Below the pieces are notes generated by a model. That model saw nothing but the letters and a program-made list of their open reading frames with translations, had not been told where the DNA came from and made no database searches. From positions 1-59,945 of the forward strand of contig JBBTXT010000007.1 of NCBI GenBank assembly GCA_038062135.1: 59,945 nucleotides of DNA, written 5' to 3'. The position numbers and the translations under genes are program-made. Of this stretch, positions 16,112 to 17,260 are shown piece by piece; positions within the stretch are counted from its first letter, which is position 1; every line of letters begins with the position of its first letter. The stretch is from Patescibacteria group bacterium (GTDB lineage Bacteria; Patescibacteriota; Minisyncoccia; 2-02-FULL-40-12; GWA2-44-9).

Positions 16112-17260
16112 ATGACACTTAGAAAAATAACCATAAAAAATACCCAGGATGAATTGGGGATAGTACACCAACTTCAGGAGAAGAATGATCCCGATAGCCT
16201 AAGGTTAAAGCGGTTTCTTGCCATGCCAGATTTATCCCGTACTCCAGGGAGTCCGATTAACGAACTTATCCAACGCATTTTGGCTTTGCCGGAAGTACAA
16301 AGTTTTGACGACGTTGAGGTTCCGGAGATTGTGCCCGCCGCCCAGAGCTTTGATTTGTTTGATTTTCCGGCCGATCATCCGGCGCGCAGCAAGTCCGACA
16401 CGTACTATGTAAATGATACACACATTCTGCGCACCCACACGACCATCTCTTGGTACTACTACCTCATGAGCGACGAGGCAAAGGAGAAAATAAAAAACAA
16501 CGAGCCATTTGGTGTTCTCACATATGGCAAGGTTTATCGCAAAGATGAAATAGATCGCCACCACATGAACGTGTTCCACCAGATAGATGGCTATTATTTG
16601 GCGCCGAAGAGTCTGAAAACCATAACGATAGAGGATCTTAAGGAAATTTTGGTGAAGATCGCTCAAGCGGCGTTCGGCAAAGATGTAAAGTACCGATTCA
16701 ATGAGGATAAATTTCCTTACACAGACCCGAGCCTTGAGATGGAAGTAGACAAGGACGGCGCCTGGGTTGAGGTGCTTGGTAGTGGCGTGGTGAAGGAGAG
16801 CGTGCTTAAAAAACTCGGCGTTGATTCCTCCAACTATACTGGTTGGGCTTTCGGATTTGGTCTTGAGCGCCTAGCGATCATCAGCATGGAACTGCCCGAT
16901 ATCCGCCTGTTGTGGTCCGACGATGAGCGGGTCAAGAAACAGCTCCAGCTTGGCAACAAATTCAAAGAGGTGAGCAAGTTTCCGCCCATAACGCGTGATA
17001 TATCGTTTATTGTTTCCCAAGATTTTATCCCAAATAACTACTTTGATTTGATTCGGGATTTGGGCGGAGACCTGGTTGAAGAAGTCCAGCTCCTGGACTC
17101 GTATGAGAACGTAAAAAAGTTCGGCGCGGACAAAAAAAGCTACACTTATCGGATCGTTTACCGAAGCAACGAGCGCACACTTGTTTCAAGTGAAGTAGAC
17201 GAAATTCAGGCCAAGATTTACGATGCTACCAAGCAGCAATTTGGGGCTGAATTGAGGTAG
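16112..17260 (+). CDS. pheS: single-chain phenylalanine--tRNA ligase, mitochondrial (FARS2)-like: PheS catalytic core + C-terminal FDX-ACB domain
   Basis: [46 protein letters not shown] (motif 2), [12 protein letters not shown] (motif 3), [15 protein letters not shown]. Then [14 protein letters not shown]...[20 protein letters not shown]...[15 protein letters not shown]. Confidence 0.9.
   Translation: [382 protein letters not shown]

Follow-up and report, generated by a model that had tools for sequence, protein, structure and literature searches.

A single-chain, mitochondrial-type phenylalanyl-tRNA synthetase gene as the probable PheRS of a Paceibacteria lineage

The locus and its two-domain protein

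We analysed 59,945 nucleotides of DNA from a Patescibacteria group bacterium (GenBank assembly GCA_038062135.1, contig JBBTXT010000007.1, positions 1 to 59,945 of the forward strand), and this whole stretch is called the window here. At 16112..17260 (+) it carries a gene for a protein of 382 aa with the architecture of a single-chain phenylalanyl-tRNA synthetase (PheRS), such as human FARS2 and yeast MSF1. The assignment draws on the open reading frame (ORF) call, Pfam, NCBIfam, matches in the PDB and an AlphaFold2 (AF2) model. Translation begins at an ATG located one base past the stop codon of the upstream ORF. The first 46 residues (16112..16249, +) form a segment of about two helices in the AF2 model, at residues 12-23 and 27-37, which stands in place of the long coiled coil of PheS and has no match to Phe_tRNA-synt_N (PF02912). 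It is followed by a class IIc catalytic core at residues 47-277 (16250..16942, +; PF01409 tRNA-synt_2d, E 1.6e-56) and by a ferredoxin-fold anticodon-binding (FDX-ACB) domain resembling domain B8 of PheT at residues 288-382 (16973..17257, +; PF03147, E 6.6e-25), which includes the residues D329-x-Y331. Apart from PF02912, the Pfam models PF03483, PF03484 and PF17759 also found no match in the protein. The next gene is gyrB (17297..19462, +; Pfam), a conserved downstream neighbour, and a tblastn search of the window for pheT was negative.

This architecture is certain. It bears out the first-pass annotation, made from the sequence alone, which had described a PheS-type class II core lacking the long N-terminal coiled coil, an FDX-ACB domain at the C-terminus, and gyrB instead of pheT as the adjacent gene. 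The C-terminal domain aligns both with PheT B8 and with residues 298-404 of human mitochondrial PheRS.

The protein shares clear similarity with both subunits of the canonical (alpha-beta)2 PheRS. Its core is 33% identical to residues 108-327 of E. coli PheS, and its C-terminal domain is 30% identical to residues 698-794 (B8) of E. coli PheT, with LLDSY opposite LFDVY. In contrast to the canonical enzyme, however, it has no N-terminal coiled coil and no B1-B7 domains, hence no editing site, it is not part of a pheS-pheT operon, and it falls below the NCBIfam cutoffs of both bacterial models (TIGR00468 for PheS, 166.1 bits versus 237.45; TIGR00472 for PheT, 81 bits versus 403). The mitochondrial PheRS equivalog model TIGR00469 (pheS_mito) was passed marginally, with 262.9 bits versus a cutoff of 258.35, and the representative of a 50%-identity cluster (P0121) obtained 264.3 bits with the same model. 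A fourth model, NF051887 for the PheS-related mystery ligase SrmL, was failed with 251.2 bits versus a cutoff of 300. In NCBI the identical protein is named 'hypothetical protein AAB561_00725 [Patescibacteria group bacterium]', and the same protein was recovered in Hainich groundwater assemblies. JGI annotates such proteins as 'phenylalanyl-tRNA synthetase alpha chain', and the NCBI label is 'hypothetical'.

We compared the catalytic and anticodon-binding motifs with those of E. coli PheS and of mitochondrial, viral and SrmL sequences. The core carries HPAR at residues 89-92, motif 2 at 142-160, FPYT at 201-204 and motif 3 at 244-255. Among 44 relatives HPAR, motif 2, FP[YF]T-DPS-E and the motif 3 sequence GWAFG-x-G-[LI]-[ED]-R-L are invariant or nearly so. 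Invariant as well is A246 in motif 3, the counterpart of E. coli PheS A294, which we take to set the size of the amino-acid pocket. In the FDX-ACB domain, D329-x-Y331 is likewise kept without or almost without exception and aligns with 'FDVY' of E. coli PheT and 'IDKF' of the human enzyme; at this position an aspartate and an aromatic residue presumably read G34 in the Thermus thermophilus complex.

The best PDB matches by sequence were structures of human mitochondrial PheRS (3cmq, 5mgu and others; E ~1e-63), covering residues 71-380. An AF2 model built with 44 relatives in the alignment reached a pLDDT of 88.6 and a pTM of 0.84. Foldseek superposed it on the closed-state structures 3cmq, 5mgu and 8p8x with TM scores of 0.76-0.78 over ~388 columns and on the open tRNA complex 3tup with a TM score of 0.57; bacterial PheS chains matched the core only. 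The near-colinearity with FARS2 proposed in the first-pass annotation stands, with its motifs aligning as they were written, and the predicted structure, which that annotation had proposed as a check, extends the likeness to the full length of the human enzyme.

From end to end the protein is ~34% identical to mitochondrial PheRS (human FARS2, yeast MSF1; TIGR00469; 3cmq, 3tup). Both are single chains in which FDX-ACB follows a class IIc core, both lack a coiled coil as well as the editing, B5 and B2 domains, and both have the same catalytic motifs and the D-x-aromatic pair in the anticodon-binding domain. The window protein differs in that its gene belongs to a cluster of housekeeping genes on a bacterial chromosome and in that it falls in a separate bacterial clade. 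Moreover, it has two residues before motif 3 that are common to bacterial PheS, a short insertion at ~residues 118-135 that is specific to the candidate phyla radiation (CPR), and FPY for FPF.

Distribution, gene order and selection

At E<=1e-20, over 7,700 protein clusters (90% identity) match the window protein, and the best 120 of them are 69-100% identical to it. Among the matches listed, the named organisms are all Parcubacteria/Paceibacteria, for example Colwell-, Yanofsky- and Liptonbacteria. After clustering at 50% identity, the window-like proteins fall under a single representative, and the matches at E<=1e-30 comprise 272 representatives. In GTDB species-representative genomes we confirmed at least 519 loci, including those of Giovannoni-, Zambryski-, Nomura-, Niyogi- and 'Doudna'-bacteria. 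No copy of the single-chain gene was found in IMG/VR.

A second CPR subgroup (Staskawicz-, Nealson-, Portnoy- and Wolfebacteria) encodes proteins that are 46-51% identical to the window protein, and its gene order is that of the window: PheRS-gyrB-secE-nusG-rplK-...-tmk-gatB-miaA. The order PheRS-gyrB-secE-nusG-rplK is kept across Paceibacteria (loci L001/L002, L090 and L091). Because two deeply diverged subgroups have the same gene order and the gene is widely distributed, we conclude from these comparisons that the single-chain PheRS gene is of long standing in Paceibacteria and has been passed on vertically there. Synteny with rplT, which we also considered, proved uninformative because an infC-rpmI-rplT cluster is missing from the window. 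Ahead of the PheRS gene we found neither a T-box nor a leader RNA.

Judged by its substitution pattern, the single-chain PheRS evolves like an essential gene. In comparison with a 95%-identical relative, the ratio of nonsynonymous to synonymous substitution rates (dN/dS) was 0.021 for PheRS, 0.022 for GyrB, 0.024 for GatB, 0.050 for the isoleucyl-tRNA synthetase (IleRS), 0.071 for the glycyl-tRNA synthetase (GlyRS) and 0.19 for the ORF upstream of PheRS. With a more distant relative on a 733-kb scaffold, PheRS shares 73% identity, GyrB 67%, L11 66% and GatB 59%.

A tRNA-Phe(GAA) of the ordinary kind, with G1-C72 and A73, is encoded at related loci. At one of them (L076) this tRNA gene (11387-11459) lies ~260 nt downstream of the PheRS gene (10001-11125), in a small cluster of Arg, Phe and His tRNA genes. 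The G1-C72 pair, A73 and the GAA anticodon of the relatives' tRNA-Phe agree with the identity elements known for mitochondrial PheRS (PMC9976931).

Sole PheRS or accessory enzyme

We consider it likely, from the sequence comparisons, that the gene encodes a functional single-chain PheRS of the FARS2/MSF1 architecture which has replaced the canonical (alpha-beta)2 enzyme in this Paceibacteria lineage. The protein would then probably be the only PheRS of the cell, and one without editing. That the bacterium uses this gene as its PheRS had been stated in the first-pass annotation; the claim receives strong indirect support from the intact motifs and D-x-Y pair, selection like that on GyrB, the housekeeping synteny, and a related genome in which a canonical pair is present and the single-chain gene is not (see below). 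Activity as a monomer, charging of tRNA-Phe and the genome-wide absence of pheS and pheT are what we infer from this.

If the protein works like the human enzyme, its class IIc core would bind Phe and ATP and make Phe-AMP. The FDX-ACB domain would swing from a closed to an open state and read G34 of the GAA anticodon in tRNA-Phe, by analogy with the human and yeast mitochondrial enzymes; the AF2 model adopts the closed state. The acceptor end, with A73 and G1-C72, would enter the active site and be charged, as in the human enzyme. Without B3/B4 editing, B5 and B2 domains, Tyr-tRNA-Phe would not be proofread in cis, and discrimination against Tyr would therefore have to rest on the amino-acid pocket of the synthetic site.

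We searched for a canonical PheRS beside the single-chain gene. Using E. coli PheS and PheT as tblastn queries, no other pheS or pheT was found in the window, where the PheT match was confined to the B8/FDX-ACB part of the single-chain gene. Neither a B3_4, B5 or CLM domain nor a second PheS was detected in 1.23 Mb flanking the gene at 87 loci from ~80 genomes.

Further information came from a published Paceibacterales metagenome-assembled genome (MAG), PMX_810_sub, which belongs to the family UBA5738, has a size of 0.8 Mb and is 90.7% complete (PMC9600506, PMC10936435). Its annotation lists one PF01409, one PF03147 and one PF03484 gene in total (PMC9600506 Table S3). These are a canonical pheS with the N-terminal domain and a pheT with B3_4, CLM, B5 and FDX-ACB, and no single-chain gene is present, including beside gyrB (PMC9600506, PMC10936435). 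Within Paceibacteria there is thus one genome or more in which pheS and pheT occur and the gene for the monomer does not. In the first 84 rows of an anvi'o table of CPR single-copy genes, three of 40 near-complete genomes had FDX-ACB and neither B5 nor Phe_tRNA-synt_N (PMC8672522). Nothing pertinent was found in the supplementary tables of PMC11188291, PMC12239599 and the Nealsonbacteria DGGOD1a preprint.

Several points weigh against a replacement of the canonical enzyme. The search of this particular genome for pheS and pheT spans 60 kb, and in the 1.23 Mb of flanks only ~1.5 matches would be expected if pheST were randomly placed, which makes their absence a weak negative. The anvi'o table is anonymised and its hidden Markov model calls are noisy, so that it is suggestive only (PMC8672522). 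The pass of TIGR00469 has a margin of 4.5 bits, and the same protein reaches 251 bits with the SrmL model. Finally, 'Nealsonbacteria' are found among the carriers of the single-chain gene and are also the source of the best PheT match for PMX_810_sub. Because they occur on both sides, the two enzymes may co-occur in some lineages, although CPR names in NCBI are loose.

Twelve related loci (L015, L019, L036, L042, L046, L053, L065, L066, L073, L077, L080 and L083) have an ORF of 130-150 aa directly upstream of PheRS that corresponds to a free-standing N-terminal B2 (tRNA_bind) domain of PheT. Its best NCBIfam match is to positions 38-152 of TIGR00472, it scores 90 bits with YtpR and has a PheT-specific tail, and its best PDB matches are PheT beta chains. 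This ORF is absent from the window. It may be a remnant of pheT or a recruited trans-acting tRNA-binding helper.

The gene could instead be an accessory paralogue, that is, a PheS-related ligase with another function, like SrmL, in a cell that has a canonical pheS-pheT pair elsewhere. SrmL is likewise bacterial, has the same two domains and groups with the CPR family in a neighbour-joining tree (64% bootstrap), and some Parcubacteria do have pheS and pheT. The protein's score with the SrmL model and the restriction of our view of this genome to the 60-kb window leave room for such a paralogue, and a relative (P0124) lies on an Oligoflexia contig whose content is that of an ordinary bacterium, for which one would expect a canonical PheRS. 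The score is, however, below the SrmL cutoff and above that of TIGR00469, whereas the SrmL members P0246, P0249 and P0255 score 376-415 bits with their own model. These three lack HPAR and have HPY for FPF and GLA[LMS]G for GWAFG; such degraded motifs suggest that SrmL has a different substrate, whereas the CPR protein keeps the PheRS consensus at every motif that SrmL has lost. An accessory role is also at odds with dN/dS values and identities like those of core housekeeping genes, with a position in a cluster of housekeeping genes that stays constant between deeply diverged lineages, and with the lack of the single-chain gene in PMX_810_sub, a well-annotated Paceibacteria genome that has pheS and pheT. 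We therefore regard an accessory paralogue as unlikely.

Another explanation is that the enzyme has been neofunctionalised and either charges another amino acid, for example Tyr or a Phe analogue, or works on a non-tRNA substrate, with PheRS activity coming from elsewhere or from a host. CPR bacteria are host-dependent, and the second Phe of FPF in the Phe pocket is replaced by Tyr, with FPYT found in 113 of 120 sequences of the window-like subgroup. In the sister CPR subgroup, however, 109 of 119 sequences have FPFT at the same synteny. Because F and Y thus interchange within one orthologous family, we take the exchange to be a variant that the lineage tolerates and not the mark of a new substrate, and a role of FPY as a specificity switch is unlikely. 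A new substrate also fits poorly with the invariance of A246, HPAR, motif 2 and motif 3 and with the retention of the anticodon-binding domain and its D-x-Y pair. We know of no bacterium that imports charged tRNA. On these grounds a neofunctionalised enzyme appears very improbable, and a functional PheRS is the reading we retain.

Relatives, origin and neighbouring genes

The neighbour-joining tree was rooted with a single outgroup and is rough. In it the CPR proteins form a clade with 100% bootstrap, and together with an Oligoflexia-MAG protein and two metagenomic proteins they make up a bacterial group (76%), which SrmL joins. Eukaryotic organellar enzymes and a set of ~345-aa proteins form a separate clade (73%), and the window protein lies outside it. 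The ~345-aa proteins, which pass TIGR00469, were at first taken for a second bacterial group, but proved to come from giant viruses such as Tupanvirus soda lake. Like the window protein, the viral enzymes have the single-chain architecture, but they are shorter, ~36% identical to it and cluster with eukaryotic sequences. This giant-virus family comprises P0138 and P0287-P0405, and many of its members lie on contigs of 0.2-1.5 Mb.

The tree and a sequence signature both bear on the source of the gene. A two-residue stretch (..Y-x-G-[WF]-A-F-G) is present in the CPR proteins and in E. coli PheS and is missing from the eukaryote/virus clade. Because the CPR clade stands beside that clade and has Y-x before GWAFG, the gene is, by these comparisons, no recent import from eukaryotes or viruses. 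A recent transfer, or contamination or misassembly, is hardly credible: the closest characterised relatives are indeed mitochondrial and giant viruses such as Tupanvirus have the same architecture, but the gene occurs with native synteny in the 519 or more confirmed species-representative loci and in independent assemblies of this species, its clade, with 100% bootstrap, lies outside the eukaryote/virus clade and has the bacterial two-residue signature, and the G+C content around it equals that of the neighbouring genes.

The Oligoflexia MAG (GCA_019694465.1; locus L089, 10001-11245) encodes a single-chain PheRS homologue of 414 aa with intact motifs, which shares 42-43% identity with the window protein and 48-67% with its own closest relatives. 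It is surrounded by ordinary metabolic genes on a contig that does not look like CPR. This homologue may be a transferred extra copy.

The first-pass annotation had assigned the enzyme to a type that is normally regarded as an organellar invention, and had suggested a bearing of the gene on genome reduction and on the origin of the mitochondrial enzyme. The view of an organellar invention is too narrow, as bacterial relatives are implied by the curated NCBIfam SrmL family and by the marginal pass of TIGR00469. As to the mitochondrial enzyme, the phylogeny that was called for places the CPR proteins in a bacterial clade beside, not inside, the eukaryote/virus clade; they may plausibly be connected with how that enzyme arose, and the neighbour-joining tree does not give the direction of transfer. 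A wider scenario would be that a large part of Paceibacteria lost the (alpha-beta)2 PheRS, which is otherwise universal in bacteria, and with it the editing site, and that this family (with the Oligoflexia-like proteins and SrmL) and the mitochondrial enzyme descend from the same PheS-B8 fusion. Monomeric PheRS would then be a bacterial invention that eukaryotes and giant viruses acquired afterwards. We put this scenario forward tentatively and think it rather doubtful.

In a 2023 review of tRNA identity, monomeric PheRS is described for organelles only (PMC9976931). Full-text literature searches found no description of a bacterial or CPR monomeric PheRS, or of SrmL; Gile 2015, Meheust 2019, Mukai 2017 and Chaliotis 2017 mention PheRS, and not a bacterial single-chain form. 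We rate the bacterial family as undescribed, though implicit in databases through the JGI label, TIGR00469 and SrmL. The replacement of pheS and pheT would, if confirmed, be biologically notable: in bacteria PheRS serves as the textbook case of an obligate heterotetramer, and a major bacterial radiation with a monomer would break this rule. It would also provide a natural experiment, in which free-living or episymbiotic cells translate without PheRS editing of Tyr- or m-Tyr-tRNA-Phe. TIGR00468 and TIGR00472 belong to the GTDB bac120 marker set, and genomes without these pheS and pheT markers would affect completeness estimates for CPR. The family would further offer a compact bacterial PheRS for biochemistry and genetic-code engineering, and a concrete bacterial sister group with which to test the source of the mitochondrial enzyme.

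Directly upstream of the PheRS gene lies a lineage-specific ORF of 135 aa (15703..16110, +) without a Pfam or NCBIfam match. It evolves fast, with a counterpart of 60% amino-acid identity in the 95%-identical relative. As its stop codon lies one base before the ATG of PheRS, the two genes may be translationally coupled. We rejected it as a conserved partner, since other lineages have unrelated small genes at this position. The gene two places upstream of PheRS is a housekeeping neighbour that encodes a class II GlyRS of the glyQS type (14270..15700, +; Pfam tRNA-synt_2b and HGTP_anticodon). Its true start is probably internal, at ~14333, and gene calls in other assemblies give 447-476 aa.

The window is rich in aminoacylation genes, with ArgRS (3448-5304), IleRS (7879-11391), GlyRS (14270-15700), PheRS (16112-17260), GatB (22211-23686) and ThrRS (26700-28457) within 25 kb. 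The IleRS-type class I synthetase (+ strand, 1170 aa) has tRNA-synt_1, Anticodon_1 and DUF5915 matches, and a His_Phos_1 domain is inserted at residues 536-671. The insertion is also present in the 95%-identical relative (L091, 1041-4541), at 88% amino-acid identity and a dN/dS of 0.05. To our knowledge, no aminoacyl-tRNA synthetase with a histidine-phosphatase insert has been described. Two large ORFs, of 1015 aa (43649-46696, +) and 410 aa (23781-25013, +), have no Pfam match, and one of 849 aa (51833-54382) matches DUF4012 only. A tmRNA gene with the tag GNSHSSNYAFA occupies positions 1-420 (-) of the window and is cut by the contig end.

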